NCBI GenBank assembly: GCA_964560005.1
Contig: CAZLKB010000003.1
Span: 174,951 to 238,950 of the forward strand
DNA: 64,000 nucleotides
Direction: 5' to 3'
Source of the DNA: an uncultured Gammaproteobacteria bacterium
GTDB taxonomy: Bacteria > Patescibacteriota > Patescibacteriia > Patescibacteriales > GWC2-42-12
Within the stretch, counting starts at the first letter, position 1; every line of letters begins with the position of its first letter. Made by a program: the position numbers and the translations under genes. Below are positions 4,215-63,784 of this stretch, in pieces. The notes under the pieces were generated by a model. That model was given only the letters and a program-made list of their open reading frames with translations. It did not search any database and was not told where the DNA came from.

Positions 4215-4337
4215 TAATCTAAATTACCAATGACTAATGACAAATGTCAAATCAATGTCAAATGACAAATTACAAATTTGCTACGCTTACGCTGAAAATT
4301 ATTTTGTCATTGGAAATTTGTCATTTGTCATTTTAAT
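4215..4337. repeat. AT-rich word dyad (AATGACAAAT / ATTTGTCATT family)
   Basis: Left half has aatgacaaatg words, right half their complements; the 15-mer gtcatttgtcatttt (4320-4334) recurs inside rsmI at 51071-51085. Confidence 0.7.
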
Positions 4338-7581: not shown

Positions 7582-7608
7582 TGTCATCGCGGGCTTGACC
7601 CGCGATCC
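7582..7608. repeat. TGTCAT-type hairpin element
   Basis: tgtcatcgcgggcttgacccgcgatcc; stem atcgcggg/cccgcgat. Confidence 0.8.
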
Positions 7609-10662: not shown

Positions 10663-10689
10663 TGTCATTGCGGGCTTGACCCGCAATCC
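10663..10689. repeat. TGTCAT-type hairpin element
   Basis: tgtcattgcgggcttgacccgcaatcc, near-identical to 7582-7608. Confidence 0.8.
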
Positions 10690-10747
10690 AGGAGTTAGTA
10701 GTACGCTTGTTAGTTTTACATTATCATTGTTAGCGCTACGCCCTCCT

Positions 10748-10802
10748 GGATTCCGGCTTCGCCCCGCAGATGCGGGGCTCTCCTTCGGAGGCCGGAATGA
10801 CA
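10748..10802. repeat. TGTCAT-type element (reverse orientation) with nested CCCCGCAGATGCGGGG hairpin
   Basis: ggattccggc ... gccggaatgaca with ccccgcagatgcgggg inside; the latter recurs at 38653 and as a variant at 10934. Confidence 0.7.
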
Positions 10803-12687: not shown

Positions 12688-12812
12688 TTCACGCAACTCA
12701 TAACTCGTAGCTCGTCCGCCTCGGCTTCGCTTTAGCGAGACGGGCAACTCTTTTATCCAAGATTTTGAGTTACCAGTTATGAGTTACGAGTTGTGAGTTG
12801 CGAGTTGCGAGA
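12688..12812. repeat. Word dyad (ACTCATAACTCGTA / GAGTTACGAGTT family) enclosing a GCCCGTCTCGC-family element (12710-12745)
   Basis: caactcataactcgtagctcg on the left, gagttaccagttatgagttacgagttgtgagttgcgag on the right. Confidence 0.7.
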
Positions 12813-12871
12813 TGTAAGTTATGATAATATAATTATTATACCAATTTCCCGCATTACTGTCTATGTCTAAA

Positions 12872-18935: not shown

Positions 18936-18962
18936 TATAAAAGTGTAAAATGAAAAAATCAA

Positions 18963-19075
18963 AATTAAAAATGACAGTTAAAAATGTAAAATTAAATATT
19001 TAAACATTTTAAACTTTACATTGTCATTTTACACTTTGATATTTACATTTTACATTTGTATTATACCCCATTTCT
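18963..19075. repeat. AT-rich word dyad (TGTAAAAT / AAAATGACA family)
   Basis: The 18-mer aaaatgacagttaaaaat is shared with the groEL upstream spacer (30618-30740). Confidence 0.65.
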
Positions 19076-19302: not shown

Positions 19303-20643
19303 ATGAAACTAGGTAATGTATGGTTGGTCGGCAACGACGCCCGGGCTCATGCCATGGCGGAAGCAATCAAAAGGTCAAGCCAAAAGGTGCGGCTTACCGC
19401 CTGGATGGAAAAATCTAATCCCGGCATCAAGGACTTAGCGGACAAGGTGATTATAGGCGATGGCTATGATGAGCTTATAGACCATGCTTCTTTTTATGGC
19501 AATACCGATTTGGCCATTATTAGCCCGGAAAAGCCACTAATGATAGGGGTAGCCGATGACCTTAGGAATTTCGGCGTGTCCACGGTCGGACCCGGACAAA
19601 AACCAGCTCAAATAGAAGGGTCAAAAGCCTGGGCCAGGGGTTTGATGGTCAAACACCATATTCCGGGCATGCCGATATTCGGGGTTTTTAGTAACCTGGA
19701 CGGGCTTGAACAATATCTTGAGGCGAATCAGCCATTCGTACTGAAGCCCGACGGTTTGACCGGCGGCAAGGGGGTTCAGGTCCAAGGCGAACACTTCAAC
19801 ACGGTTGCCGAGGCAATGACAATCTGCCGGGAAATTCTGGAAAAACACGGCGCTGTGGTTGTGGAGGAAAAACTCGAAGGCGAGGAATTTTCTCTGCAAT
19901 GCTTCTGCGACGGTACCAATGTCGTAGCCACGCCCCCGGTTCAGGATCACAAGCGCCGTTTAATCGGCGACCAAGGCTTAAACACCGGCGGTATGGGCTC
20001 GTATTCCTGCGCCAATCAGCTGCTGCCTTTTCTAACATCAGCCGACCTGGAACAAGCCACTGAAATCGTTAGGCAAACCGTTAAAGCCATACGGAAAGAA
20101 ACCGGAGAGCCTTTCCAGGGCTTTCTCTACGGCGGGTTTATGAAAACCGCCCGAGGCATTATGCTGATAGAGTTCAACGCCCGCTTAGGCGACCCGGAGG
20201 CCATTGATGTCCTGTCGCGTCTGGAAACCGATTTTCTGGACATCTGCCGTTCTATCGCCAGTCCGGAGAGATACGGCGGTCTGGACCGAATAGACATCAA
20301 ATTCAAGCCCCGGGCCACGGTAGTAAAATATGTGGTGCCGGTCTATTACGGCATGCCGAGAAATCTATCAACCCCGATCGCGTCCGATCTAATTCAGATC
20401 GGCGACTTAGGGAAAGCGCAACTGTATTATTCTTCCGTAAACGCGGACGCTGCCGGCATCCACCTGACCTCTTCACGCGCTATAGCCGTTCTAGGAACGT
20501 CCGCTGATATCACCGAAGCGGAAAGAATCGCCGAGCAAGGGGCTCGAGCCGTTACCGGCGCCGTGGATCATCGTCCGGACATTGGCAGGGCCGCGCTGAT
20601 CGCTAAACGAGTGCTACACATGAAACAGCTAAGGGGGGAATAA
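19303..20643 (+). CDS. purD: Phosphoribosylamine-glycine ligase (GAR synthetase)
   Basis: ATP-grasp layout; KPDGLTGGKGV, VQDHKRRLIGDQGLNTGGMGSY, IEFNARLGDPE. Confidence 0.9.
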   Translation: MKLGNVWLVGNDARAHAMAEAIKRSSQKVRLTAWMEKSNPGIKDLADKVIIGDGYDELIDHASFYGNTDLAIISPEKPLMIGVADDLRNFGVSTVGPGQKPAQIEGSKAWARGLMVKHHIPGMPIFGVFSNLDGLEQYLEANQPFVLKPDGLTGGKGVQVQGEHFNTVAEAMTICREILEKHGAVVVEEKLEGEEFSLQCFCDGTNVVATPPVQDHKRRLIGDQGLNTGGMGSYSCANQLLPFLTSADLEQATEIVRQTVKAIRKETGEPFQGFLYGGFMKTARGIMLIEFNARLGDPEAIDVLSRLETDFLDICRSIASPERYGGLDRIDIKFKPRATVVKYVVPVYYGMPRNLSTPIASDLIQIGDLGKAQLYYSSVNADAAGIHLTSSRAIAVLGTSADITEAERIAEQGARAVTGAVDHRPDIGRAALIAKRVLHMKQLRGE

Positions 20644-20782: not shown

Positions 20783-20800
20783 TGTCATTCCCGGGAAGGC
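20783..20800. repeat. Truncated TGTCAT-type element
   Basis: tgtcattcccgggaaggc; only one half present. Confidence 0.5.
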
Positions 20801-20886
20801 AGTAATATATATATAGTTTGTATATTCCGTATGATACCATTATAACGTCTATAGTGTTACGAAGTCATTGAACCACTTCGTTTTAC

Positions 20887-24921: not shown

Positions 24922-27189
24922 TTATTTACTTAACTCCCCTATCTTTTTCTCCATCTCCGCATTCCCCGGATTCAATTCCAAAACTTTCTGATAATATTTT
25001 AAAGCTTCTTCAGTATCGCCCTTGGCCTCATAAGCGACGGCTAAACTATATAAGCTGTTGGAATGCTTTGGAGAAATTGTTAAAACCAGCTTAAACCTGA
25101 CTATGGCTTTATCAATTTCTTTATGATTAAAATAATATCTGCCCAGTTCATAATAAACCTCCACGCTCTCAACCTCGCCCGCCAGCTCATTCAATAGCGC
25201 CAGGGCTTGATTATCTTTTTTATTGCTTAAATAAATTTTAGCCAAGCCGAATTTAGCTTCATAATAATCGCTCTTTAGCTCTAAAGCCCTATTATAATAT
25301 TTTTCCGCATTAACCGGGTCGTTATTGTTGGCATAGGCTTTAGCCAGCTCGGCGGCCAAGACCGGATTAGTCGGTTCAAGCGAAACGGCTCGGCTGAAAT
25401 ATTTAACCGCCCAAGCCTCGCTGCCTTGAGTTAACGGCCTGATATCGCGGTATATCATGCCCAAGGTTTCCTGGGGTAGGACGGAGTTAGGCGCTAAAAC
25501 CTCGGCTTGCCCGGCTAGCGCCAAGGCCTGGGCGATATTCGCTTGGATATTCGCGTTATCTCTTTGTTCAATCGGTTTTAGAGCTTCCGCCTTAGTTTTA
25601 TTTAAATAAAAATCGGCTAGGCTTATCCTAAAATTATAGCGGTAAGGATTTAATTTAACCGCGGCCGTTAAGTTGGCCTGGCGATTCAGCCTTTTTGAGG
25701 CGAAAATATCGGCGATAAAAAATCTGATTTCAAAAACCAAGAGTACGGCCCAAAGCGCGATTAAAAAAAATAAAACTAAATAAAATAGCCAATGGAATAT
25801 ATCGATTTTCTTTAAATCAATTATTTTTTCTTTAAAAACAACCTGATTCCGGCTTTGCCAAAAGGCGATGATTAAGCTTAAACAGAACCAAAAAATAAAA
25901 TTTAAAACCGTGTTGGTAAAAGAAAATAACCGGGCAAAAAATATTAAAATAAAAACGATCAACAGGCCGGCGATTAGATAATAATCTTGATTAGATAAGG
26001 CCGCCGGCAGGCCTTTCAGATGCTGCCTGATTAAAACGATATTTAAATAAATCACTAAGCTGATTATTAAAAAATAGCTTAGCGCGGTCAAACCGCCGGC
26101 GGTTGCCAGCATCTCTAAAAAATTTGAACTGCTTTTATCAAACCTAATCTGCCAAAAAGCGCTTTGGTTTAATTCGGCCGGACGGTAAAGAGAAAAGCCG
26201 TAGGCAAATGTTCCCGGGCCGCTGCCAAGCGCCGGATACTGCTTAACCGCTTCTTCGGTGATCGCAAGAGATTGATCGTGTGTCAATAAAATTTCTCCGG
26301 GTAAATCCTGTCCCGTGGCTCTTTTTACTAAATTTACATTAGGCCAAGCCAGCATAACCACCGCTATTAGCAATAAAATCGCGGGAATTAACAGCTGGTA
26401 ATTTAAGATCGCCTTAAGCTTGCCTCTTTGATCCAGCCAGTAGAAAAAAATTATTAAAATAGCGCCCAGACCGAGTAGAGCCCAAATTAAATAATAATTA
26501 ATGAACAGTAAAATTATTAAAAAAATCGCTAAAACTGCGCTGAAAAAAATATGGCTATGCTTTTTAAGACTATTTTGAGTTAAAAAATCAGCCAAGCCGA
26601 TTGAGACGAAGGCTAAAAAAATTCCCAAGGCGATGAGCGAACTGCCGGCTAAATTAAATAATCCGGCTGAAAAAAAGTTTACCCATCTATCCGCGGCCGC
26701 GCTTAGCCAGCCGAAGACGGAGAAAAGAAATACAACGGCAACGACCGCCGAAGAATAAAACAATATTTTTAATAAATCAATGATTTTTTTTGTGCTGTCG
26801 GCGATCTCGCTGTTAATTATTAAAAAATAAAGGATTACCAGGCTGAATAAACCCAGCCAGGCATCGGTTGAGCGTCCGAAATAACCGAAAAAAGACGAGA
26901 AACGGTCAAGGCTGAGCCAAGAAGCGGCTAGAGCCAATAATAAAAAAATTAAGACCGGTAAATTCAACGGATTAATTTTCAATTTTAATTGTCCCGGCGC
27001 CAAGGCTTTAATCAGCCAAAGGAAAAGCGCCAGAGGCATAGTGAGCCAAAGCAAAAACTGCTTATTAAACTCAAAATATTCACTCGTCCAAGGTAAAAAA
27101 AACAAAGGCAGGAGAAAAATTGTCGCCTTTATTAATATTACAACAGATTTATCTAATTTATTGATAATCTTATCTGCCATCACATTCAA
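24922..27189 (-). CDS. Polytopic membrane protein, O-antigen ligase/polymerase-like, with C-terminal TPR repeats
   Basis: More than 12 TM helices then repeated A..YY..A...P TPR-like units (AEKYYNRALELKSDYYEA, ALKYYQKVLELNPGNAE). Confidence 0.7.
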   Translation of the reverse strand: MNVMADKIINKLDKSVVILIKATIFLLPLFFLPWTSEYFEFNKQFLLWLTMPLALFLWLIKALAPGQLKLKINPLNLPVLIFLLLALAASWLSLDRFSSFFGYFGRSTDAWLGLFSLVILYFLIINSEIADSTKKIIDLLKILFYSSAVVAVVFLFSVFGWLSAAADRWVNFFSAGLFNLAGSSLIALGIFLAFVSIGLADFLTQNSLKKHSHIFFSAVLAIFLIILLFINYYLIWALLGLGAILIIFFYWLDQRGKLKAILNYQLLIPAILLLIAVVMLAWPNVNLVKRATGQDLPGEILLTHDQSLAITEEAVKQYPALGSGPGTFAYGFSLYRPAELNQSAFWQIRFDKSSSNFLEMLATAGGLTALSYFLIISLVIYLNIVLIRQHLKGLPAALSNQDYYLIAGLLIVFILIFFARLFSFTNTVLNFIFWFCLSLIIAFWQSRNQVVFKEKIIDLKKIDIFHWLFYLVLFFLIALWAVLLVFEIRFFIADIFASKRLNRQANLTAAVKLNPYRYNFRISLADFYLNKTKAEALKPIEQRDNANIQANIAQALALAGQAEVLAPNSVLPQETLGMIYRDIRPLTQGSEAWAVKYFSRAVSLEPTNPVLAAELAKAYANNNDPVNAEKYYNRALELKSDYYEAKFGLAKIYLSNKKDNQALALLNELAGEVESVEVYYELGRYYFNHKEIDKAIVRFKLVLTISPKHSNSLYSLAVAYEAKGDTEEALKYYQKVLELNPGNAEMEKKIGELSK

Positions 27190-27305
27190 TGAAAAATTAA
27201 AATTTCAAAATGTAAAATGACAATGCAAAATGTAAAATTATTTTTATTTAGACATTTTAAACTTTTAATTGTCACTTTTAATTTTGATTTTTACATTTTA
27301 AATTT
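27190..27305. repeat. AT-rich word dyad (TGTAAAAT / AAAATGACA family)
   Basis: aaaatgtaaaatgacaatgcaaaatgtaaaatt ... aattgtcacttttaattttgatttttacatttt. Confidence 0.65.
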
Positions 27306-28367
27306 TTACCCCTCTTCCCTTATTGCCTTCCTGCCTTCTTCCCGACTATCAAAAATATCCTTGATAAAAACCGCTAAAGCCGTGGCCACCGGGATGGAAA
27401 GAATGGCGCCGATAACGCCGGCTAATTTAAAACCGGCCAGCATGGCTAGAATGCTGATGATCGGATTCAAACCCACCGCTTTTTCCATTATTTTCGGATA
27501 GAGAAAATTGCCTTCTATAAACTGTATGATATAAAATAATATTATAACGAAAACAGCCAACAGCGGCGCCTGGGTAAAAGCGATAAAAACCGCCGGCAGC
27601 GAGCCGAAAACCGCCCCCATATAAGGTATGAAGGAAAACAAACCGACTAAGATAGCCAGTATCAAGGCGTAATTAACCCCCAAAATCAAGAGTCCGATGT
27701 AGGTCGCGATGGCTAAGACCAGCCCTAAAATAAGCTGCCCCCTTAACCAATAGCCCATCTTAATTTGCACCCGGTTAACCAACTGCATGATATAGGACTG
27801 ATGCTTTTCCGGCGCCACGGACCAAACCAGTTTCTTCATAGCGCTTTCCTCCACCACCATGTAAAAAGTCAAAACTAAAATTAAAATAAAAGAAACGATG
27901 CCGCCGAAAATATTGGTTACCGTGAAAAAAATTCCTGAAGCCGTTGTTTGCAAATAGTTGGACAGAAGATCCAAGGACCCTTGGAACTTATCGGCCGCGC
28001 CGTATTTTAACGAGTAGTCTCTTAAATCGCTGAATTTTGAATAAAGAGATTCAAAATAGCGCGGGAAATTACTGGAAAGATCGTTAATTTCTTTCATGAT
28101 TACCGGAATAATCAGATACAAGGCCATTCCCAGGATGGCGAAAACCACGAAATATAAAAACAGCACGCTCAGCGAACGCGGGATTTTCTTTTTCTTGAGC
28201 CAGTCAACCCAGGGATTTAAGGCGCTGGCGAAAACCAAGGAGACAAAAAAGAGAATCAGGATATCGCCGACTAAATATAAAAAATACAGCAAAACAAAAA
28301 TCGCGATTATTTTTATTATGGTGGAGCTGGAAATATTAATATTGACCGGATGCTTGTTGAACTCCAT
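27306..28367 (-). CDS. AI-2E family transporter (PerM/UPF0118)
   Basis: 8 TM layout, FIPYMGAVFGSLPAV motif; start moved to Met37 (Met24 at 28406 also possible) because a terminator hairpin lies in the longer ORF. Confidence 0.83.
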   Translation of the reverse strand: MEFNKHPVNINISSSTIIKIIAIFVLLYFLYLVGDILILFFVSLVFASALNPWVDWLKKKKIPRSLSVLFLYFVVFAILGMALYLIIPVIMKEINDLSSNFPRYFESLYSKFSDLRDYSLKYGAADKFQGSLDLLSNYLQTTASGIFFTVTNIFGGIVSFILILVLTFYMVVEESAMKKLVWSVAPEKHQSYIMQLVNRVQIKMGYWLRGQLILGLVLAIATYIGLLILGVNYALILAILVGLFSFIPYMGAVFGSLPAVFIAFTQAPLLAVFVIILFYIIQFIEGNFLYPKIMEKAVGLNPIISILAMLAGFKLAGVIGAILSIPVATALAVFIKDIFDSREEGRKAIREEG

Positions 28368-28958: not shown

Positions 28959-30740
<1,782 letters not shown>

Positions 30741-31070: not shown

Positions 31071-31112
31071 TGTCATTGCGAGGAGCCCGTAATCAGGCGA
31101 CGAAGCAATCTC
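31071..31112. repeat. TGTCAT-type hairpin element in the groES leader
   Basis: tgtcattgcgaggagcccgtaatcaggcgacgaagcaatctc. Confidence 0.7.
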
Positions 31113-32787: not shown

Positions 32788-34316
<1,529 letters not shown>

Positions 34317-34383
34317 TGTCATTCCCGCGAAAGCGGCCTGTTTTCCTCTTCTGCGCCGAGGTCAGCACCGAGGAGTAATCCAG
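34317..34383. repeat. TGTCAT-type element, extended form (left end of the atpG-atpD insert)
   Basis: tgtcattcccgcgaaagcgg...gcgccgaggtcagcaccgaggagtaatccag. Confidence 0.7.
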
Positions 34384-34407
34384 AAATTCCATACCTTCGA
34401 CGAGAGA

Positions 34408-34436
34408 TTGACTAATTATTAATTATATAATATATT
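34408..34436 (+). promoter_or_regulatory. Promoter antisense to the atp operon
   Basis: TTGACT - 17 nt - TATATT. Confidence 0.55.
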
Positions 34437-34508
34437 ATATTGTTAGGTTAATATCAATCGCACATTCCAACAAAACGGTGGCGACCGAATACGCGAAAAG
34501 GAAAAATC

Positions 34509-34706
34509 ATGAGAACTGTCTTGGTAAAAGGTACATATGCTCCCTTCCTTATGAGCGAAAAAGCCGCGAAACGTGGCAAGCACATTATTCTTCTTGGGCA
34601 CAAAGCAATCGGAACCGCTAACGCCAAGAAAGGCAACGGCCGTGCTTTGTCTAACGGCAGGAAAAATAGGAACTTCAGGCATGTCCCGGAAACCCTACTT
34701 GATTAA
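34509..34706 (+). CDS. Orphan 65-aa highly basic protein, antisense within the atp operon
   Basis: AAGGA 8 nt before ATG; 14 Lys/Arg versus 3 Asp/Glu; followed by a clean terminator; no family recognised. Confidence 0.4.
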   Translation: MRTVLVKGTYAPFLMSEKAAKRGKHIILLGHKAIGTANAKKGNGRALSNGRKNRNFRHVPETLLD

Positions 34707-34728
34707 CGCCAAGTGGCCTCGTTCTGCC

Positions 34729-34760
34729 GCCACCGACTTCAAAAGTTGGTGGCTTTTTTT
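34729..34760 (+). terminator. Rho-independent terminator of the antisense cassette
   Basis: gccaccgac / gttggtggc stem (one G-U) followed by T7. Confidence 0.8.
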
Positions 34761-34823
34761 ATTTAAAGAACTTTCTTCTCTTTCTGTAATGCCGGGGCGG
34801 AGCGGAACGATAGCATGTTTTAC

Positions 34824-34890
34824 TGTCATGCCGGACTTGATCCGGCATCTCATGAATTAAATGAGATCCTGAATCAAGTTTAGGATGACA
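34824..34890. repeat. Composite TGTCAT...ATGACA inverted pair (three hairpins)
   Basis: tgtcatgccggacttgatccggcatc - ctcatgaattaaatgag - gatcctgaatcaagtttaggatgaca. Confidence 0.85.
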
Positions 34891-34936
34891 GATTAGAGCT
34901 CCTTGCAGTCGCTCCCTCCAGTATAACAACACCACA

Positions 34937-35866
34937 CTACTCCGCCAGCGCGTTAGCCCCGGCGCTAATTTCAGCTATTTCCGAGGTGACTCCCGCTTGC
35001 CTGGCTTTATTATATGATAAGGTCAATTCACCCACCATATCGGAGGCCGCGTCCGTAGCCTGATGCATGGCCAGCCGCCGCGCGCTTTGTTCGGAAGCGT
35101 TGGATTCCAGCAAGGCCTGGTACAGCTGAATTTCAATCAACCGAGGCAGCATATCATTTAAAACTTCTTCCGGGCTGGGTTCAAAAATATAATCATTGCT
35201 AACTTGCGCATTAGATTGCTGCTCGCCTTGTTTTTCCCCGACACTGCCTAAATCCTCATCTATTTTGCTTATATCTATGGGTAAGAGCTGTTTTAGGCGA
35301 GGCAGTTGTTTCGCGGCATTAACGAAATCGGTGTAAGCTACCAGAACTTTGTCATACTTGCCGGATAAATAATCATCAATAATCATTTTCGCCACCGCCG
35401 TGATTTCACCGACCTCGTCAATATAATCCAGCTTGGGAAAATCGGCCGCCACTTCAAAACCAAAATTTTTGTGCACCATCCCGCCTTTCTTGCCGAGTAA
35501 AATAAATTCATGGCTGATATTTTTACCATCGCCGCCAACTGCGTGTTTCTTAATTGATTCAATGGCTTTTTTTATAATCACTGAATTAAATCCGCCGCAT
35601 AAGCCGCGGTTGGAAGTAATTAAAATAATGGCTGCCTTTTTTATTTCTTTTCTCTTGAATAACAACGGGTGGAGAGTTTGGCTGTCTCTGCCTCGCGCCA
35701 AATCTAAAACCGTGGCCCAGCTTAAATTTGCGTAAGCCCTGGTCTTCAGCACCGCTTCAATGGCTTTACGCATCTTCGCGGCCGAAACCATTTCCATAGC
35801 CCGCGTAATTTTCTTGGTATTGCCAATGGACTTTATTCTTTTTTTGATGTCGCGTGTATTTGCCAT
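34937..35866 (-). CDS. atpG: ATP synthase F1 gamma subunit
   Basis: MANTRDIKKRIKSIGNTKKITRAMEMVSAAKMRKA start and C-terminal ITSEIAEISAGANAL helix. Confidence 0.95.
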   Translation of the reverse strand: MANTRDIKKRIKSIGNTKKITRAMEMVSAAKMRKAIEAVLKTRAYANLSWATVLDLARGRDSQTLHPLLFKRKEIKKAAIILITSNRGLCGGFNSVIIKKAIESIKKHAVGGDGKNISHEFILLGKKGGMVHKNFGFEVAADFPKLDYIDEVGEITAVAKMIIDDYLSGKYDKVLVAYTDFVNAAKQLPRLKQLLPIDISKIDEDLGSVGEKQGEQQSNAQVSNDYIFEPSPEEVLNDMLPRLIEIQLYQALLESNASEQSARRLAMHQATDAASDMVGELTLSYNKARQAGVTSEIAEISAGANALAE

Positions 35867-35877
35867 TCGTCTTTTAT

Positions 35878-35946
35878 TGTCATCCTGAACTTGATTCAGG
35901 ATCTACTTTTTTGCCGAATAGATTCCGGGTCAAGCCCGGAATGACA
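35878..35946. repeat. Composite TGTCAT...ATGACA inverted pair
   Basis: tgtcatcctgaacttgattcaggatc ... gattccgggtcaagcccggaatgaca. Confidence 0.85.
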
Positions 35947-35953
35947 TAATATA

Positions 35954-37516
35954 TTATTTCACCAAATACTCCACCGTCTCCTTATAATCCTCAACCAGTT
36001 TCTTCATCTCCCCTTCCAGCTTTTCGTTTAACTCCTTCTTCTCGGCGATTTCTTTTAATATCTTAGCGCCGCTGGTAGCCGCGTATTTATGAAGCCCGGC
36101 TTCAAATTCCGCGATTTTTTCCACCGGCACATTATCCGCCAAACCGTTAATCAAAGCAAAGAAAATCAAAACTTGATTGGCTACGGCGAGGGGCGAATAT
36201 TGGCCCTGCTTAAATATTTCCTGTAATCTCTTGCCGCGCTCCAGCTTAGCTTTAGTGTCCTTATCCAAATCAGAACCGAATTGGGCGAAAGCGGCCAATT
36301 CTCTGAACTGCGCCGCCTCCAGCTTCATTTTTCCGGCAACTTTCTTCATGGCTTTTATCTGCGCAGAACTGCCGACCCGGGAAACCGAGAGGCCGGCGTC
36401 CACGGCCGGACGGCTGCCCTGATAAAACAATTCCGGCATTAAATAAATTTGGCCGTCGGTAATGGAAATGACATTGGTCGGAATATAGGCCGACATATCC
36501 CCGGCTTGGGTTTCAATAATCGGCAAAGCGGTAATGGAACCGCCGCCGTATTCCTTACTCAACTTGCAGGCTCTTTCCAATAATCTGGAATGTAGATAGA
36601 AGACATCGCCGGGATAGGCTTCGCGGCCGGGCGGGCGCCTTAAAAGCAAGGAAATTTCACGATAGGCTACCGCGTGCTTAGACAAATCATCATATACTAT
36701 TAAAACATCTTCGCCCTTGTCTAAAAAGTATTCGGCCATGGCGCAGCCGGCATATGGAGCGATATAGAGGAGTGATGCCGGATCCGAGGCTCCGGCCAAG
36801 ACAACCGTGGTATATTCAAGCGCGCCCGATTGTTCCAACTTAGCCACCATGCTCGCCACTTTAGATTCTTTCTGCCCGATGGCTACATAAATACACTTCA
36901 TGTTTTGGCCTTTTTGATTGATAATCGTATCTATAGCTATGGCGCTTTTGCCGATCTGGCGGTCGCCGATAATCAATTCTCTTTGCCCGCGGCCGATAGG
37001 AATAATCGCGTCAATAACCTTGATTCCGGTCTGAACCGGCTCCTTAACTCCCTGGCGGGTAATTACGCCCGGCGCGATTTTTTCCACCGGATAAAATTTT
37101 TCCGCCTCTATTTCCCCCTTGCCGTCCAGCGGCTGGCCCAAGGCGTTAAGCACGCGCCCGATAACGCCAGGTCCCACCGGCACCTCCAGAATTTTTTTCA
37201 GGCATCTTACCTCGTCGCCCGCTTTAATTTTTGAACTATCGCCCAAAATTATGGCTCCGACTCGATCTTCTTCCAAATTAAGCGCCACGCCATAAGACTT
37301 TTCATTTTCAACCAATTCGCGTTCATTCGCGTTCATTCGCGATGAATTCGTGATCTCCAACATTTCCGACATCATGACATCGGAGATGCCTTCAATTCTG
37401 GCAATGCCGTCGCCGACTTCAATCACCCGGCCGACGGTTTGCTCCTTCACGCTAGCCTTATAACCGGCGATTTGCTCTCTTAATTGTTCAACGATAAAAT
37501 CTTTGGTATTATTCAT
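35954..37516 (-). CDS. atpA: ATP synthase F1 alpha subunit with an in-frame repeat-derived insertion near the N-terminus
   Basis: Walker A GDRQIGKS, typical alpha motifs; extra [19 protein letters not shown] segment. Confidence 0.98.
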
Positions 37517-38597: not shown

Positions 38598-38790
38598 AAT
38601 GAATAATGTAAAATGTAAATCTCAAAATGAAAAATGCTAGCTCCGCTAACACCCCGCAGATGCGGGGTCATTGCAGAGCAATGACAATGAAAAATTCAAA
38701 ATGAATTAATAATTTTACATTTTTAATTGTCATTTTTAGATTTACATTTTCAACTTTACATTTTTAATAATCTCACCCCTGCCCCAGCCA
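38598..38790. repeat. 220-bp spacer: TGTAAAAT word dyad enclosing GC-rich hairpins
   Basis: ccccgcagatgcgggg (38653-38668) and gtcattgcagagcaatgac (38667-38685), flanked by tgtaaaatgtaaat / atttacatttt words. Confidence 0.7.
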
Positions 38791-38817: not shown

Positions 38818-39064
<247 letters not shown>

Positions 39065-40567: not shown

Positions 40568-40655
40568 CTCATAAAATCTCGTAACCCATAACTCACAACT
40601 CGTAACTGCTTTAGCACGGCATTTTGAGTTACGGGTTACGAGTTATGAGTTGCGA
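40566..40655. repeat. Word dyad (ACTCATAACTCGTA / GAGTTACGAGTT family)
   Basis: ctcgtaacccataactcacaactcgtaact ... gagttacgggttacgagttatgagttgcgag. Confidence 0.75.
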
Positions 40656-40660
40656 GAAAC

Positions 40661-41509: not shown

Positions 41510-41570
41510 TGTCATTCCCGCGAAGGCGGAAATCCATTTCCTTTGTCATTGCGGGCTCAGACCCGCAATC
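41510..41570. repeat. Two tandem TGTCAT-type hairpin elements
   Basis: tgtcattcccgcgaaggcggaaatcc and tgtcattgcgggctcagacccgcaatc. Confidence 0.85.
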
Positions 41571-41728: not shown

Positions 41729-42364
41729 CTATTCCCTTATCACTTTTATATTCTCCATATCTCTTAAATCTATTAATTTAGATGGTTTCGCGTTCGCGCA
41801 TTCTCCCGCGTCAATCGCCAGGTCTGGCAAAACCGTAAAATATTTTTCCAAGCCTCTTACATTATCCAGAGGCGGCTCGCCGGTTTTATTCAAACTGGTG
41901 GAAACGATAGGAAAGCCAGCCTTACTAATCATTTTAATCAAAAATTCACTTTTTGGCAATCTAACGGCCAAACTATTTAAGCCGCGGGTTAATTCTTCAG
42001 GCAAATTTTTCCTGCCTTTAAAAATAACAGTGGTCGGCCCGCTTTTTACCCCCTTAATAAAGGGGGTTAGGGGGATTTTTCGTACTCCCCAAACCTTTTT
42101 TAAATACTCCATCTGTTCCTCGCTAACTTCACAATACTCTTTCAGCATGATAAAATCACTTATTAAAATTATGAATGGCTTTTCATCCCTGCCGCCCTTT
42201 ATCTTTTTTATCTTTTCCACCGCTCGCGCATCGCGCGCGTCGCAGCCCAGACCATAAATCGTATCGGTCGGATAAGCGATCACTAAACCGCGCTTTAAAT
42301 AATCCACGATTATGTCTATTTGTTCTGGAGTTATTTTATTTATGTCTATTTTTATGGTTTGCAT
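41729..42364 (-). CDS. tsaC: L-threonylcarbamoyladenylate synthase (TsaC/YrdC family) with an in-frame repeat insertion
   Basis: VIAYPTDTIYGLGCDA, VSTSLNKTGEPP; the W-GPTTVIF motif is interrupted by 16 extra residues. Confidence 0.9.
   Translation of the reverse strand: MQTIKIDINKITPEQIDIIVDYLKRGLVIAYPTDTIYGLGCDARDARAVEKIKKIKGGRDEKPFIILISDFIMLKEYCEVSEEQMEYLKKVWGVRKIPLTPFIKGVKSGPTTVIFKGRKNLPEELTRGLNSLAVRLPKSEFLIKMISKAGFPIVSTSLNKTGEPPLDNVRGLEKYFTVLPDLAIDAGECANAKPSKLIDLRDMENIKVIRE
42048..42079. repeat. GC-rich CCCCCTTAATAAAGGGGGTTAGGGGGATT element inside tsaC
   Basis: Same family as intergenic copies at 44701-44745, 44812-44842 and 10069-10090. Confidence 0.85.
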
Positions 42365-42372
42365 TTGTCATT

Positions 42373-42398
42373 TATCATTCCCACGAAGGCGGGAATCC
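42373..42398. repeat. TGTCAT-like element (TATCAT variant) overlapping the 3' end of the upstream CDS
   Basis: tatcattcccacgaaggcgggaatcc; its complement encodes GFPPSWE plus the stop codon. Confidence 0.75.
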
Positions 42399-43445
42399 AG
42401 AATTTATTTTTTTTTTCAAAATTTTCACTACCCCATTATCCGCGTCCACTTCCACCAAGTCGCCGTCATGCAAAACCTTAGTGGCAATTTTGGTGCCGAT
42501 GATGCAGGGCTTTTTAAGCTCACGCGCAACAATGGCCGCATGACAGGTAATACCACCTTCATCAGTGACAAAGGCGGCGGCTTTTCTCATTGCTGATATA
42601 AAATCTGGCGTTGTCATTGAACTAACGAGAATTTCACCACTCTTAATTTTAAAAATATCTTTATTCTTTAAAATAATTTTGACAACACCACGTGCTTTCC
42701 CTCTATAAGCAACCTGTCCAGTAAAATGGTCTATTTCTGATAAATTTTGCTCTCCCTCAAGAATAAAATTGAATTTTTTCTCCAGTTTTTTTAAATCATT
42801 GACGGTTATCAACTCATCTCCATTTAAAACTAACGTTTTCTTTTTTCTGACTTTTAGCTGGCTTTTAGTTGGGATTAAATTTTTTCTAATCTCATTTAAA
42901 CTTATAAAACTGGAAAGTTCACCTAGCTCGGGATAAATTTTTCTAAGAGCTGTTTCAATTGAGTGGAAAGCGTCATATTCCACTTTATCTATTTTGCGTC
43001 TTATCCCTATCATAAAATTTCTTTCTGGTTCGCTGTAGCTCATGTCGTTCGGAATAAACAAAGAGGCATAAATCAGCAACCAAAAATCTCCTAGTACCTC
43101 CGTAAAGACTAATAAATCCTTTCTTGTTGGGTGAGGGTTGGCATAAAATTTCTCCAGTACCGGAATCTGACGCAAGTGTTTCTCGGAAAAAATTTTCAAA
43201 AATTTTTGTTTTTCGGCCATCTTATCTTCAAAAATTTTTCGTAATTCTTTATCAAGCGGATTCTCATTTCTGTATGCTTTAGCGAGGCCACCTTCAATTA
43301 AAAAAATGTAGCGCGGGAAAGTCTTAATTTTCTTTCCAAAAAATTCCTTATATCTCCCGCCCCATACTTGGCAGAGAATTAAAGGAAAATCTCTGACAAA
43401 GGCCTTCGGAATAATTATCGGTTTTCTCTTGAACATAATAGTCAA
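42375..43445 (-). CDS. PEP-utilising-enzyme mobile (phosphohistidine swivel) domain protein with an unknown N-terminal domain
   Basis: C-terminus LVSSMTTPDFISAMRKAAAFVTDEGGITCHAAIVARELKKPCIIG matches the swivel domain of PpsA/PPDK-type enzymes. Confidence 0.75.
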   Translation of the reverse strand: MTIMFKRKPIIIPKAFVRDFPLILCQVWGGRYKEFFGKKIKTFPRYIFLIEGGLAKAYRNENPLDKELRKIFEDKMAEKQKFLKIFSEKHLRQIPVLEKFYANPHPTRKDLLVFTEVLGDFWLLIYASLFIPNDMSYSEPERNFMIGIRRKIDKVEYDAFHSIETALRKIYPELGELSSFISLNEIRKNLIPTKSQLKVRKKKTLVLNGDELITVNDLKKLEKKFNFILEGEQNLSEIDHFTGQVAYRGKARGVVKIILKNKDIFKIKSGEILVSSMTTPDFISAMRKAAAFVTDEGGITCHAAIVARELKKPCIIGTKIATKVLHDGDLVEVDADNGVVKILKKKINSGFPPSWE

Positions 43446-44691: not shown

Positions 44692-44700
44692 ATTATTTTT

Positions 44701-44842
44701 GCCCCTTTTAACAAAGGGGGTTAGGGGGATTTAAACCCTCCTTCTAAAGGAGGGTTAGGGAGGTTTCCGCCGGAGGCGGATCCGCCTTTGGCGGAAAATT
44801 AACATTGATTAACCCCCTTAATCCCCCTTTATAAGGGGGACG
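44701..44842. repeat. Array of GC-rich mini-hairpin repeats
   Basis: cccctttaacaaaggggg, ccctccttctaaaggaggg, tccgccggaggcgga, atccgcctttggcgga and cccccttaatccccctttataaggggga in one spacer. Confidence 0.85.
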
Positions 44843-49187: not shown

Positions 49188-49257
49188 TGTCATTGCGGCC
49201 TCCGAGCCGCAATCTTCTCTGTCAATTCATAGATCCCGGGTCAAGCCCGGGATGACA
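49188..49257. repeat. Composite TGTCAT...ATGACA inverted pair
   Basis: tgtcattgcggcctccgagccgcaatc ... gatcccgggtcaagcccgggatgaca. Confidence 0.85.
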
Positions 49258-50726: not shown

Positions 50727-50872
50727 AAATATGACAATTTTTAATTTCTAATTTTCAATTTTTAAACAATTTTCAATGACTTAATTTTCAATTTTAAAAA
50801 CCAGGGGCATTGAAAATTGAAACATTAAATCATTGTTTGAAAATTGAAAATTGAAAATTGAAAATTTTTTAA
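50727..50872. repeat. AT-rich word dyad (AATTTTCAA / TTGAAAATT family)
   Basis: ctaattttcaatttttaaacaattttcaatg ... cattgaaaattgaaac...gtttgaaaattgaaaattgaaaattgaaaatt. Confidence 0.7.
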
Positions 50873-51610
50873 CTATTTTCCCACAATAACCACGAACTCC
50901 CCCTTCTGATCGTTTTTATCCGCTTTAATTTTTTCAATTATGCTTTTTAAATCGCCACGATAAACCGTTTCATGCATCTTGGACAGCTCGCGGCATACCA
51001 CTACTGATGTTAAATTTGCCATTTTACTTTTGTCATTTGGATTTTGACATTGATTTGTCGTTTGGCATCCGTCATTTGTCATTTTCTCCAGCTCGTCTAA
51101 AAACTTCAAGATTCTATGCTTAGATTCATAAACCACTACCGGATACTCGCTGGTTGCGATTTTTTTAATAAAAGTCTGCCGCCCCTTTTTATGCGGCGGA
51201 AAACCCATAAAAATAAATTTATCCGTGGGTATGCCGGAGATTGATAAAGCGGCCGTAACCGCCGACGGTCCGGGCACGGCTTCAATCTGCACCTCGTTAT
51301 TTAATTTCTCCAAAATTATTTGGATCAGCTTGCCGCCCGGATCGGAAATGCCGGGCGTGCCGGCGTCGGACACCAGGGCCAAATTTTTGCCGCTTGCCAG
51401 CAAATCTATTACTTCATTTTCTTTGCTTAAACCGGAATGCTGATGGTAAGAAATCGTCGGAGTTTTTATATTATAACGTTTGAGCAAGACCGAAGTAACG
51501 CGCGTATCTTCGCATAATATAAAATCGACTTCGCCTAATATGCGAAGCGCTCTCATGCTGATATCCTCTAAATTGCCGATTGGCGTGGCCACGATGTATA
51601 GGGTGGACAT
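50873..51610 (-). CDS. rsmI: 16S rRNA (cytidine1402-2'-O)-methyltransferase with an in-frame repeat insertion
   Basis: LYIVATPIGNLEDIS, CEDTR, SDAGTPGISDPG; start at Met10. Confidence 0.92.
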   Translation of the reverse strand: MSTLYIVATPIGNLEDISMRALRILGEVDFILCEDTRVTSVLLKRYNIKTPTISYHQHSGLSKENEVIDLLASGKNLALVSDAGTPGISDPGGKLIQIILEKLNNEVQIEAVPGPSAVTAALSISGIPTDKFIFMGFPPHKKGRQTFIKKIATSEYPVVVYESKHRILKFLDELEKMTNDGCQTTNQCQNPNDKSKMANLTSVVVCRELSKMHETVYRGDLKSIIEKIKADKNDQKGEFVVIVGK

Positions 51611-54344: not shown

Positions 54345-54412
54345 TGTCATCCCGGGCCTGACCCGGGATCTTATGGTTAAGCCATAGATCCTGAATCAAG
54401 TTCAGGATGACA
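54345..54412. repeat. Composite TGTCAT...ATGACA inverted pair between convergent mscL and typA
   Basis: tgtcatcccgggcctgacccgggatc - tatggttaagccata - gatcctgaatcaagttcaggatgaca. Confidence 0.85.
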
Positions 54413-62170: not shown

Positions 62171-63784
62171 TTATATTTTACCACTTTTTTCCTGCTTTAA
62201 CAATTTTGACCGTTGTAATTTAATTATAATGAATATGGCTAAAAAATAATATAAAATTATCCAGCCAATGGACAAATAGCTGATTTCTAAAGAACTGTGC
62301 GGCAGGCTAGCGAAAAACCTTACCGCCGCTAGAATATATTTGGTTAAAATCAAACTGGGCAGAAAAAAAATAAACGACCAGCCGGGCAGAAAAAAACTTA
62401 TAGGCAAGGCCGCTAAAATTAAAACGGTTAAAATCGGCAAAGCCCAAAGCACGGCTAAGTTGGCCAAGGGCGCAATCAAAGAGATCTGCGAAAAATTATA
62501 AGCCAAGATCGGCAAAGTAAATACTTGCGCGGCCAAGGTAATCAAAAGCGCATCGCTTAAACCTTTTAATTTAGGCAACTTAATCTTTTCCCATAAGGCT
62601 TCAAGGATTGGATAAGCATAAACCAGGCCGGCGATAGCTAAAAAGGACAACTGAAACCCCACGTCATCGCGCAACAATTTTGGATTAATAATTAGCAGTA
62701 CGGCCGCGGTTAGAACTAACGAATTAGTCATTTTATTCAGCCGGCCCAGCTTTAAAGCCCAAAGCACTAAGAAGCCCATCAGTCCGGCGCGCATGGCCGA
62801 TGCCGGCAAACCCACTAAGACAATATAACCGGCTAAAAACAATGTCGCCAGATAAAAGGCATACCGACGGCTAAGGCCAATAGCTAACAGCACCACCATC
62901 ACTATGGCCGCTAAAATGCTAATATTAAAGCCGGACACGGCCATAATATGGGTTAAGCCGGCTTTTTGAAAATCATCTCTGATGCTTTGGGGCAAGCCTT
63001 TTTGCCCGCCGAAAACGATCGGCCGGGCTAAGCTGGACTCCGGTTCGCTTAAGCCGAAATCAATTAAACCGGACATAATCTTCTTAAAATTAATAATATT
63101 CCGATAAAATATATTTCCTCCGCCCGCCCGCTCAACTTTTATCTTAGGATAATAACCAACCGAATAGATATCATAGCGAGCCAAGTAGCGGTCATAAGCA
63201 AAACCCTTGAACTCTTCCGGCTGGACTAATTCACCGGTGATTTCCAGCTCATCGCCGTATTGAAATTCCGGATATAAATTAACGGTCAATAAAAGTTTGC
63301 CGGAAACTTTTCTGCAAAGCCCGGAGTTAACCTCGGCGTTAGGGCAAAGCTCGCCAACCTTAATTTTTAATTTCTGGCTCGTTTCCCTGATGTCCGGTTC
63401 GTCGGCTATAAACCCGCGCACTACCACTTCTTGATCGCCCGCTTGTTCCAGAGATAAGTTATAATGCCAAACTTTATCCGGCGTATTTACCGGCAGGCTG
63501 GCGGAGTAGCGCCAAATAGCGAAAAATAAAATTGCTACAAATAAAAAAACCAAGCGAACGATTTTTTGTCCAATTGGTTTTTCATACCGCCAAAACAGAA
63601 AGGTTAGAATCAAAAAAAATACAGTCAGGCCGAACCACCAAATTTTATACTGAAGCAGCCCGGCAGGCCCGCCCGCCGGCCAGGCGGGAAAAAACGAAGC
63701 TAAGGCAATGCCTAAAATAAAAACCAGGCAGCCGATTAAAAAAACTTTGCCTTTAGAAAACATTACCCCTCCTTGTATATGCAT
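62171..63784 (-). CDS. comEC: ComEC/Rec2 DNA internalisation channel (no C-terminal metallo-beta-lactamase domain)
   Basis: N-terminal TM plus OB-like region, then competence domain (GLTHIMAVSGFNISIL, polytopic C-terminal part); 537 aa. Confidence 0.9.
   Translation of the reverse strand: MHIQGGVMFSKGKVFLIGCLVFILGIALASFFPAWPAGGPAGLLQYKIWWFGLTVFFLILTFLFWRYEKPIGQKIVRLVFLFVAILFFAIWRYSASLPVNTPDKVWHYNLSLEQAGDQEVVVRGFIADEPDIRETSQKLKIKVGELCPNAEVNSGLCRKVSGKLLLTVNLYPEFQYGDELEITGELVQPEEFKGFAYDRYLARYDIYSVGYYPKIKVERAGGGNIFYRNIINFKKIMSGLIDFGLSEPESSLARPIVFGGQKGLPQSIRDDFQKAGLTHIMAVSGFNISILAAIVMVVLLAIGLSRRYAFYLATLFLAGYIVLVGLPASAMRAGLMGFLVLWALKLGRLNKMTNSLVLTAAVLLIINPKLLRDDVGFQLSFLAIAGLVYAYPILEALWEKIKLPKLKGLSDALLITLAAQVFTLPILAYNFSQISLIAPLANLAVLWALPILTVLILAALPISFFLPGWSFIFFLPSLILTKYILAAVRFFASLPHSSLEISYLSIGWIILYYFLAIFIIIKLQRSKLLKQEKSGKI

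Follow-up and report, generated by a model that had tools for sequence, protein, structure and literature searches.

Contig CAZLKB010000003.1 is 266,181 bp long, and the window analysed here is a 64-kb stretch of it. The window is housekeeping DNA with about 56 genes, including gyrB, thrS, dnaE, parAB, purD, groES/EL, the whole atp operon, tatD, tsaC, metG, mscL, typA and comEC. Its GroEL groups at 90% identity with a protein of Parcubacteria bacterium GW2011_GWC2_42_12. Between the genes lies a family of short hairpin units that begin with TGTCAT and occur either singly or as inverted pairs of about 70 bp, which we call composites. The focal composite (35878..35946) fills the 87-nt spacer between atpA and atpG: 7 nt separate it from the atpA stop and 11 nt from the start of atpG.

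Hairpin units and composites in the window

The composites found in the window are the following (the stem arm is given for each unit):

35878-35903 (+): left unit of the focal composite, TGTCAT-CCTGAA-CTTGA-TTCAGG-ATC, followed by a 19-nt spacer
35921-35946 (-): right unit of the focal composite, TGTCAT-TCCGGG-CTTGA-CCCGGA-ATC
34824..34890: composite of GCCGGA (+) and CCTAAA-TTCAGG (-, one mismatch) with a 17-nt palindromic spacer, 46 nt past the atpG stop
49188..49257: composite of TGCGGC (loop CTCCGA, +) and CCCGGG (loop CTTGA, -), 8 nt past the metG stop and 11 nt before cvpA
54345..54412: composite with CCCGGG (loop CCTGA) as forward and CCTGAA (loop CTTGA) as reverse unit, between mscL and typA/bipA, whose stops converge
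10663..10802: loose fifth composite with a 59-nt spacer, upstream of a GNAT acetyltransferase gene, DNA fold z = -7.3
10663-10688 (+): forward unit of the fifth composite, stem TGCGGG, CTTGA loop
10746-10802 (-): reverse unit of the fifth composite, with a long loop that holds a nested CCCCGCAGATGCGGGG hairpin

In each of the four tight composites the forward unit comes first and the reverse unit second, the TGTCAT ends point outward and the spacer in between is 17-19 nt long. Their positions, opposite orientation and TGTCAT/ATGACA ends had been described correctly in the original prediction, which was made from the sequence alone. The two arms of a composite are different hairpins. DNA folding gives z values from -4.7 to -7.3 for the window composites; the two focal units score -4.7 and -5.1, and composite 54345..54412 (z = -6.0) folds as a three-way junction with TGTC/GACA as the closing helix. 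No duplicated bases are shared by the flanks of the four composites, in agreement with the earlier remark that no obvious target-site duplication was seen. The convergent arrangement dominates among close pairs in all loci studied (n=122): 85 are forward-then-reverse, 15 reverse-then-forward and 22 on the same strand.

The other units in the window are listed here:

7582..7607 (+): single unit TGTCAT-CGCGGG-CTTGA-CCCGCG-ATC, 6 nt past the gyrB stop
20783..20806 (+): decayed copy TGTCATTCCCGGGAAGGCAGTAAT with the stem mostly gone, 139 nt past the purD stop
31071..31110 (+): long-type unit TGTC-ATTGCGAGGAGCC...GCGACGAAGCAAT-C in the groES leader
34317..34383 (+): 67-nt unit of the long type, located upstream of atpD and ending in TGTCATT...AATCCAG
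38651..38686 (-): short variant TGTC-ATTGC-tct-GCAAT-GA fused to a CCCCGCATCTGCGGGG hairpin, upstream of atpF
41510..41570 (+): pair of forward units in tandem, immediately upstream of tatD
41510-41534 (+): first tandem unit, NTS-like with 3 mismatches to the consensus of the Neisseria NTS; GAAG loop, stem with one mismatch
41544-41570 (+): second tandem unit, TGCGGG stem, CTCAGA loop
42373..42397 (+): NTS-like unit TATCATTCCCACGAAGGCGGGAATC followed by CAG, with TATCAT in place of TGTCAT and 3 mismatches to the NTS consensus

The hexamer TGTCAT is found 53 times in the window, where shuffles would lead one to expect 14.9 +/- 3.7 (shuffle maximum 26), although part of this excess is due to unrelated AT-rich heptamer arrays. 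A stricter scan of the whole window, which asks for GTCAT plus a hairpin with at least 7 of 8 pairs, returns 12 units, whereas 100 second-order Markov randomisations give a mean of 0.61 and a maximum of 2. These strict units start at 7583, 10664, 34825, 34866(-), 35879, 35922(-), 41511, 41545, 49189, 49233(-), 54346 and 54388(-). About six further units are decayed, long-loop or otherwise variant, which brings the total to about 18; the earlier count of at least 18 copies is thereby confirmed, all of its listed sites being real.

The complete architecture spans 26 nt: T-GTC, an 8-bp stem starting with AT, a loop of 4-6 nt (mostly CTTGA), the complementary arm, a C and usually (C/T)A(G/T). The alignment of 13 window units shows no variation at T, TCAT and ATC, and in the same 13 the palindrome is preceded by GTC (ATC in one unit) and followed by C on its 3' side, with tails such as CCAG, CCAT, CTAG and CTAT. 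The 8-10-bp GC stem of the original prediction needs correction, as the stem is 8 bp long and two of its pairs are the invariant A-T and T-A. Compensatory variation of the stems, on the other hand, was rightly recognised: in the window alignment 96.9% of the cells are paired and the six inner pairs out of eight vary on both sides, values reached by 0 of 500 shuffles. This test is partly circular because the aligned units were chosen by a structural scan.

Units occupy short intergenic spacers, many of them 6-50 nt from stop codons, and in the genome loci 92 of 103 single units lie outside long open reading frames (ORFs). Gene coordinates likewise place the window units at gene ends, in the groES leader and at a convergent junction, as had been proposed.

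Relation to the NTS and SRM repeats and to Ssn-type nucleases

Hairpin repeats of a comparable build have been published by Chenal et al. (Nat Commun 2025, PMC11893778) as NTS, NTSvar and SRM (Ssn-related motif), which are multi-copy and found across phyla. The Neisseria NTS is CGTCATTCCCGCGMAVGCGGGAATCYRG, with dRS3 as its palindromic core, and NTSvar is CGTCATACTCGGGNNNNNCCCGAGTATC. An NTS is accepted with at most one mismatch, and SRMs are searched with the pattern HGTCWYN(0-2)YYVSBRHN(0-5)WNVSBRGN(0-2)RNCYNB. According to the same study, SsnA (a 94-aa single-domain GIY-YIG protein) binds the hairpin in single-stranded DNA only and cleaves a few nucleotides upstream of it, as do three homologues. 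For SsnA binding the most critical base is the C after the palindrome, and cleavage depends most on the three bases 5' of the palindrome; the loop can be dispensed with, and ssn genes (cd10448) are typically flanked by the motif. Patescibacteria are not mentioned in that paper, nor is the convergent-pair composite described.

The architecture of the window units is that of NTSvar. Units 41510 and 42373 lie within 3 mismatches of the NTS consensus against 0 expected by chance, and exact NTS matches are present in the relatives L154 and L176 and also in L112.

The family extends far beyond the window. Among the matches listed for the pattern TGTCATNSYRRRCTTGAYYYRSNATC there are more than 119 genome stretches from about 20 phylum-level groups, including Patescibacteria, Bacteroidota, Alpha-, Beta-, Gamma- and Deltaproteobacteria, Melainabacteria, Spirochaetes, Elusimicrobia, Chloroflexi, Omnitrophota, Dependentiae, Planctomycetes and others, as well as 33 viral stretches. 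Full pairing is seen in 164 of the 193 units found with this pattern, where about 1 in 128 would be expected, and more than 20 different stems are represented. This unit-by-pattern test is not circular because the search pattern left pairing unenforced, and it is evidence that hairpin pairing is maintained. A second scan that asked solely for GTCAT plus a hairpin found 379 units over all loci: the base after the palindrome, not required by the scan, is C in 365 of them, and GTCAT is preceded by T or C in 363, counts that are approximate because some loci overlap.

One contig classed as viral (L020 and L022, IMGVR_UViG_3300037044_000272, 18.6 kb) carries 12 CTTGA-type units in about 17 kb, mostly as composites. 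This contig may come from a phage with many Ssn motifs, or from a bacterium if its classification is wrong.

The only gene family that consistently adjoins the units is a GIY-YIG protein of 90-129 aa (PF01541, E about 1e-16 to 1e-18). First met in L044, L046 and L094, it has units within 10-160 nt of the gene in 8 of 8 independent loci. Typically a forward unit lies upstream of the gene and a reverse unit, or a forward plus reverse composite, lies downstream. The right arm of the focal composite recurs as an exact 26-mer bracketing such a gene in L094. The original prediction had looked towards a cognate TnpA(REP)/RAYT or other transposase, but the recurrent neighbour is the GIY-YIG nuclease instead: clustering of the ORFs around the 193 units in 152 loci yields no recurrent transposase family, and Pfam annotation finds no Y1_Tnp or other transposase among the roughly 56 window ORFs.

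A homologue search returned 3,362 GIY-YIG proteins at E <= 1e-10, nearly all of 87-114 aa, with Patescibacteria and Pacebacteria among their hosts. Homologues 64-81% identical to the Patescibacteria protein are annotated in metagenome-assembled genomes of Smithella, Nitrospirae, Omnitrophica, Bipolaricaulota and Deltaproteobacteria, most of them on contigs shorter than 3 kb. This scatter over short contigs suggests frequent horizontal transfer, mis-binning or both, together with assemblies that break at repeats; the repeats themselves may be what breaks them.

The atp operon links the gene family to the lineage of the window. A group of Patescibacteria contigs has the order atpA-atpG-GIY-YIG-(antisense ORF)-atpD, the atpG-GIY-YIG synteny recurs in L240-L248, and the AtpG of Patescibacteria relatives with a GIY-YIG gene between atpG and atpD is 63-65% identical to the window AtpG. 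In L176, a locus fetched via AtpG, the GIY-YIG gene directly follows atpG and is in turn followed by an exact NTS and a composite. At the position of the window composite 34824..34890, a unit-ssn-unit-unit cassette is found in L176, L235, L240 and L241-L248. The atpG/atpD spacer of the window measures 742 nt and holds this composite plus the long unit 34317. Here the composite lies about 75 nt before a conserved antisense terminator (AAAAAAAGCCACC...GGTGGC), and in L235 and L241 the composite downstream of ssn is at a similar distance from that terminator. Since the atpG/atpD spacers are too diverged to align (only the atpG end aligns), orthology of the composites rests on their position relative to the terminator. 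Judged by this position, composite 34824-34890 is the gene-less counterpart of the ssn cassette at apparently the same site.

The same spacer also encodes, at 34509-34753 (+), an antisense basic ORF of 65 aa with no Pfam hit, followed by the strong terminator GCCACCGACTTCAAAAGTTGGTGGC plus T7. The terminator motif is kept at the same position in L156, L174, L235 and L241, where an antisense ORF of 131 aa is called.

Taken together, the comparison of sequences indicates that the TGTCAT hairpins are probably members of the NTS/NTSvar/SRM superfamily in a Parcubacteria (Patescibacteria) host, and may be substrates of an Ssn-type nuclease.

A number of results weigh against this assignment and its consequences. 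The published SRM pattern matches only 1 of the 12 strict units (49229-49257, minus strand, the right arm of composite 49188..49257), and no window unit lies within one mismatch of NTS, the best having 3. Threading one unit by hand suggests that the other units miss the SRM pattern because it demands a final G in the 3' arm and a longer stem than theirs. As most units fall outside the published search definitions, they would represent a subtype that the published pattern misses. Furthermore, there is no GIY-YIG ORF in the 64-kb window by a hidden Markov model built from three GIY-YIG neighbours, by regular expression or by tblastn at E up to 50, and the atpG/atpD slot, where relatives in the lineage carry ssn, holds no ssn gene. 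The GIY-YIG neighbours themselves give only sub-threshold hits in NCBIfam, and against PDB they find nothing closer than UPF0213 or UvrC (E >= ~0.05). Finally, only the C(C/T)A...T(A/G)G ends are common to the spacers of different composites, which are otherwise unrelated, and therefore recent copying of whole composites lacks support.

A hidden or decayed ssn gene in the window was considered as well. The hit that tblastn ranked first (E = 0.04, 19354-19437) is a spurious one within purD.

Insertion history and possible mobility

The atpA/atpG junction bears traces of insertion. In five relatives (L155, L159, L160, L161 and L164) the spacer is 1-22 nt long. The window has 87 nt at this place, L156 has 151 nt and L154 has 278 nt, filled each time by different TGTCAT-type units. 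Given the short spacers in five relatives and the differently filled long ones elsewhere, this junction has been invaded repeatedly. The long unit at 34317 is 57/66 identical (86%) to a copy at another junction in L154, and the long type of 31071..31110 builds a composite in L156.

Several units interfere with gene prediction or have become part of genes. The ATGACA ends supply the first in-frame ATG of three minus-strand ORFs, namely GNAT (10668), groES (31076) and tatD (41515), and the resulting N-terminal extensions are probably false. For groES and GNAT this is judged from the Pfam matches, which begin 17-61 residues in; the true start of tatD is read from the sequence as MLIDTHAH, at residue 6. 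Unit 42373 (42375-42400) encodes the last 8 residues, SGFPPSWE, and the stop of a minus-strand PEP-utilizer ORF. The repeats thus create spurious start codons, rewrite the C-terminus and stop of one gene and sit inside the atp operon.

We also considered avoidance of one replication strand, as would follow from self-cleavage on the lagging-strand template. Eight of the 10 single window units are forward on the C-rich plus strand; the genome loci split 42 versus 40 by GC skew, and given this even split in the larger sample the bias in the window is put down to chance.

A mechanism can be outlined if the assignment to the Ssn-related repeats holds. As its sequence and the folding predicted here suggest, a unit would fold into a hairpin when its DNA is single-stranded, for instance after import via ComEC or when exposed during replication or repair. 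An Ssn-type single-domain GIY-YIG enzyme would then bind the hairpin together with the 3' C and cut the same strand a few nucleotides 5' of GTC, as shown for homologues, for which the reverse strand is no substrate (PMC11893778). In a composite there is one forward unit on the 5' side of each strand, so that cleavage of both strands would bracket the whole element of about 70 bp, much like the ends of an insertion sequence. Units and composites would be inserted into short AT-rich spacers between a stop and the next start, where they would persist as selfish or neutral DNA. We infer that the window units are substrates of an Ssn-type enzyme in this organism and that the nuclease is involved in their spread.

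A plausible source of the single-stranded DNA is available. The window contains a gene for a ComEC-type competence channel (PF03772 + DUF4131) at 62174-63784 (-), ComEC being the channel that imports single-stranded DNA. In Neisseria, Ssn acts on imported single-stranded DNA, and Patescibacteria are thought to depend on DNA uptake. As the window encodes ComEC, imported single-stranded DNA is a plausible Ssn substrate here.

The suggestion in the original prediction that the composite is the mobile form survives in part. It gains plausibility from the gene-less counterpart of the unit-ssn-unit cassette described above; the unrelated spacers tell against a simple copy-and-paste of whole elements. 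It is possible, but rather doubtful, that the composites of about 70 bp are non-autonomous derivatives of this cassette, comparable to miniature inverted-repeat transposable elements (MITEs). To our knowledge no transposition chemistry has been described for a single-domain GIY-YIG nuclease. If the idea were true, Ssn elements would form a distinct class of mobile DNA, with single-stranded hairpins as ends and a GIY-YIG nuclease of about 95 aa as the only protein. The atpG/atpD junction provides a natural before-and-after pair in this respect, with unit-ssn-unit-unit in the relatives and unit-unit only in the window. Together with the convergent pairs, these ssn-occupied and ssn-free alleles give a concrete handle on whether Ssn nucleases mobilise DNA.

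A single case of a whole composite repeated together with its spacer was encountered, in the Melioribacteraceae metagenome-assembled genome of L101. Positions 147-869 hold five tandem copies of one composite (ATCCCGAA ... TTCAGCAT) with related spacers of 62-66 nt and a period of about 145 nt.

The window contains other repeats too. AT-rich tandem arrays that repeat every 7 bp and are unrelated to the hairpin family are present in almost all of its longer intergenic regions, for example AAATGAC x8.6, TGAGTTA x8.4, ACATTTT x7.9, a perfect AAATTAG x4.7 and TTGAAAA x4.3. The heptamer arrays are located at:

4221-4333
12766-12824
18938-19062
27188-27308
30624-30736
38605-38768
39031-39063
40578-40656
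50734-50866
51014-51084

The motif TTTWCATTTT is found 20 times in the window against 2.6 expected. A second small hairpin, (G/A)CCCCGC-AGAT-GCGGGG(C/T), occurs at 10761-10778 and 38651-38668, both copies nested in or fused to a TGTCAT unit. A third palindrome family, ACCCCCTT-aata-AAGGGGGT-TAGGGGGA, is present at 42048-42075, at 44700-44840 and in the L156 spacer after atpG. The copy at 42048-42075 lies in frame within tsaC (Sua5/YrdC family) and encodes ...IPLTPFIKGV..., whereas three copies are clustered between two genes at 44700-44840. In L156 similar motifs bracket a small inserted ORF that resembles DUF559/Vsr by eye only.

Alternative explanations and comparison with known systems

The alternative that survives best holds that the units are SRM-type repeats whose Ssn gene has been lost from the genome, so that they are now inert with at most incidental effects. 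The slot between atpG and atpD that is occupied by a GIY-YIG gene in L176, L235, L240 and L241-L248 contains only a composite and a long unit here, and because this lineage-typical slot is empty the presence of Ssn in the genome is open to doubt. Decayed copies exist (20783, 34866 and 41511), and an SsnA homologue is missing from 19% of the genomes that contain more than 200 SRMs (PMC11893778). Nevertheless, the 8-bp stem is perfect in 10 of the 12 strict units, and GTC and the 3' C are intact in all of them, a pattern that speaks for recent spread or maintenance. The DNA examined amounts to 64 kb of at least 266 kb. Moreover, the CTTGA subtype of the window is unlike the GAAA/GCAG-loop subtype around the atp-linked ssn of the relatives, so the partner gene of the window units may lie elsewhere. 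We regard orphan relics as an unlikely explanation.

Less probable still is a role at the RNA level, in which the hairpins are maintained as terminators, barriers to 3'-to-5' decay or insulators. Such functions, as RNA stabilisers, terminators or insulators, had been put forward in the original prediction. RNA roles such as decay barriers have been proposed for repetitive extragenic palindromes (REPs) and bacterial interspersed mosaic elements (BIMEs) in enterobacterial operons. The window hairpins are stable and many are close to stop codons, and a composite between atpA (3 copies per complex) and atpG (1 copy) could tune mRNA stability. However, forward units show no bias with respect to the gene strand (39 against 39 in about 80 loci), no T-run follows in sense orientation, and the focal composite sits inside the atp operon, where the one terminator-like hit that overlaps a unit is antisense to atp. 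Terminator-like sites are not enriched in 34000-36200 (4 versus 3.1 expected). No Rfam family matches the units, the only hit in the window at gathering thresholds being a tRNA-Leu. If the hairpins had evolved locally, neither invariant GTC and C flanks that stay unpaired nor identical 26-mers would be kept across about 20 phylum-level groups. SsnA shows no interaction with RNA (PMC11893778). We regard the proposal as highly improbable.

Movement as REP/BIME or MITE by a RAYT/IS200-type Y1 or a DDE transposase that reads TGTCAT...ATGACA as terminal inverted repeats seems hardly credible: the pairs are BIME-like with inverted outer ends and filled as well as empty orthologous sites exist, but these models fail because neither the window genes nor the neighbours of the 193 units provide such a gene and target-site duplications are absent, while the gene that the units do flank is GIY-YIG.

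Membership of the NTS/NTSvar/SRM superfamily thus remains the reading we prefer, and it can be set against the known systems. The resemblance to MITEs of DDE transposons breaks down at the missing target-site duplication and at the composite arms, which are different hairpins. With REP/BIME and RAYT the units share GC-rich extragenic palindromes oriented by an unpaired 5' motif, inverted pairs, a location at gene ends and in operons, and recognition as single strands. The inverted pairing is encountered here in four tight composites and one loose one, although as a resemblance only. In place of a GTAG-like tetranucleotide the units have GTC as their 5' motif, and the neighbour is a GIY-YIG gene with no Y1 found; RAYT (TnpA-REP) is a Y1 HUH transposase. 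The original label of a REP/MITE-like family is hence apt in describing dispersed, oriented, intergenic and widespread repeats with BIME-like pairs, but the repeats are not anonymous, as they have the anatomy of NTS/NTSvar/SRM.

IS200/IS605 elements and PATEs have single-stranded hairpin ends, no target-site duplication and gene-less beside gene-carrying forms, and they would be analogous if the composites are mobile. They differ in that no TnpA/TnpB is present here and the ends are inverted copies of one motif. The dRS3 repeats and NIMEs of Neisseria (ATTCCC-N8-GGGAAT) are approached by units 41510 and 42373, which hold an ATTCCC...GG(G/A)AAT core. Most window stems are different (TGCGGG, CCTGAA, CCCGGG etc.), the flanks do not form NIME-type arrays and no context of an Nf-phage integrase is seen.

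The closest likeness is to NTS/SRM: an oriented hairpin with (C/T)GTC on its 5' side and an invariant C followed by YRG on its 3' side, a free loop, co-varying stems, an intergenic location and, in other loci, a single-domain GIY-YIG gene of about 95 aa bracketed by units. The dominant window subtype differs by its six variable stem pairs and CTTGA loop, and by a window that lacks the ssn gene. As the published pattern misses this widespread CTTGA-loop subtype, published censuses may undercount the family. On this reading the Ssn-related motif family is extended to Patescibacteria, and the repeats that litter genomes of the candidate phyla radiation would receive a published name and a testable protein partner. 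The kind of repeat was already known; new here are the host phylum, the CTTGA-loop subtype outside the published pattern and the prevalent convergent-pair composite.

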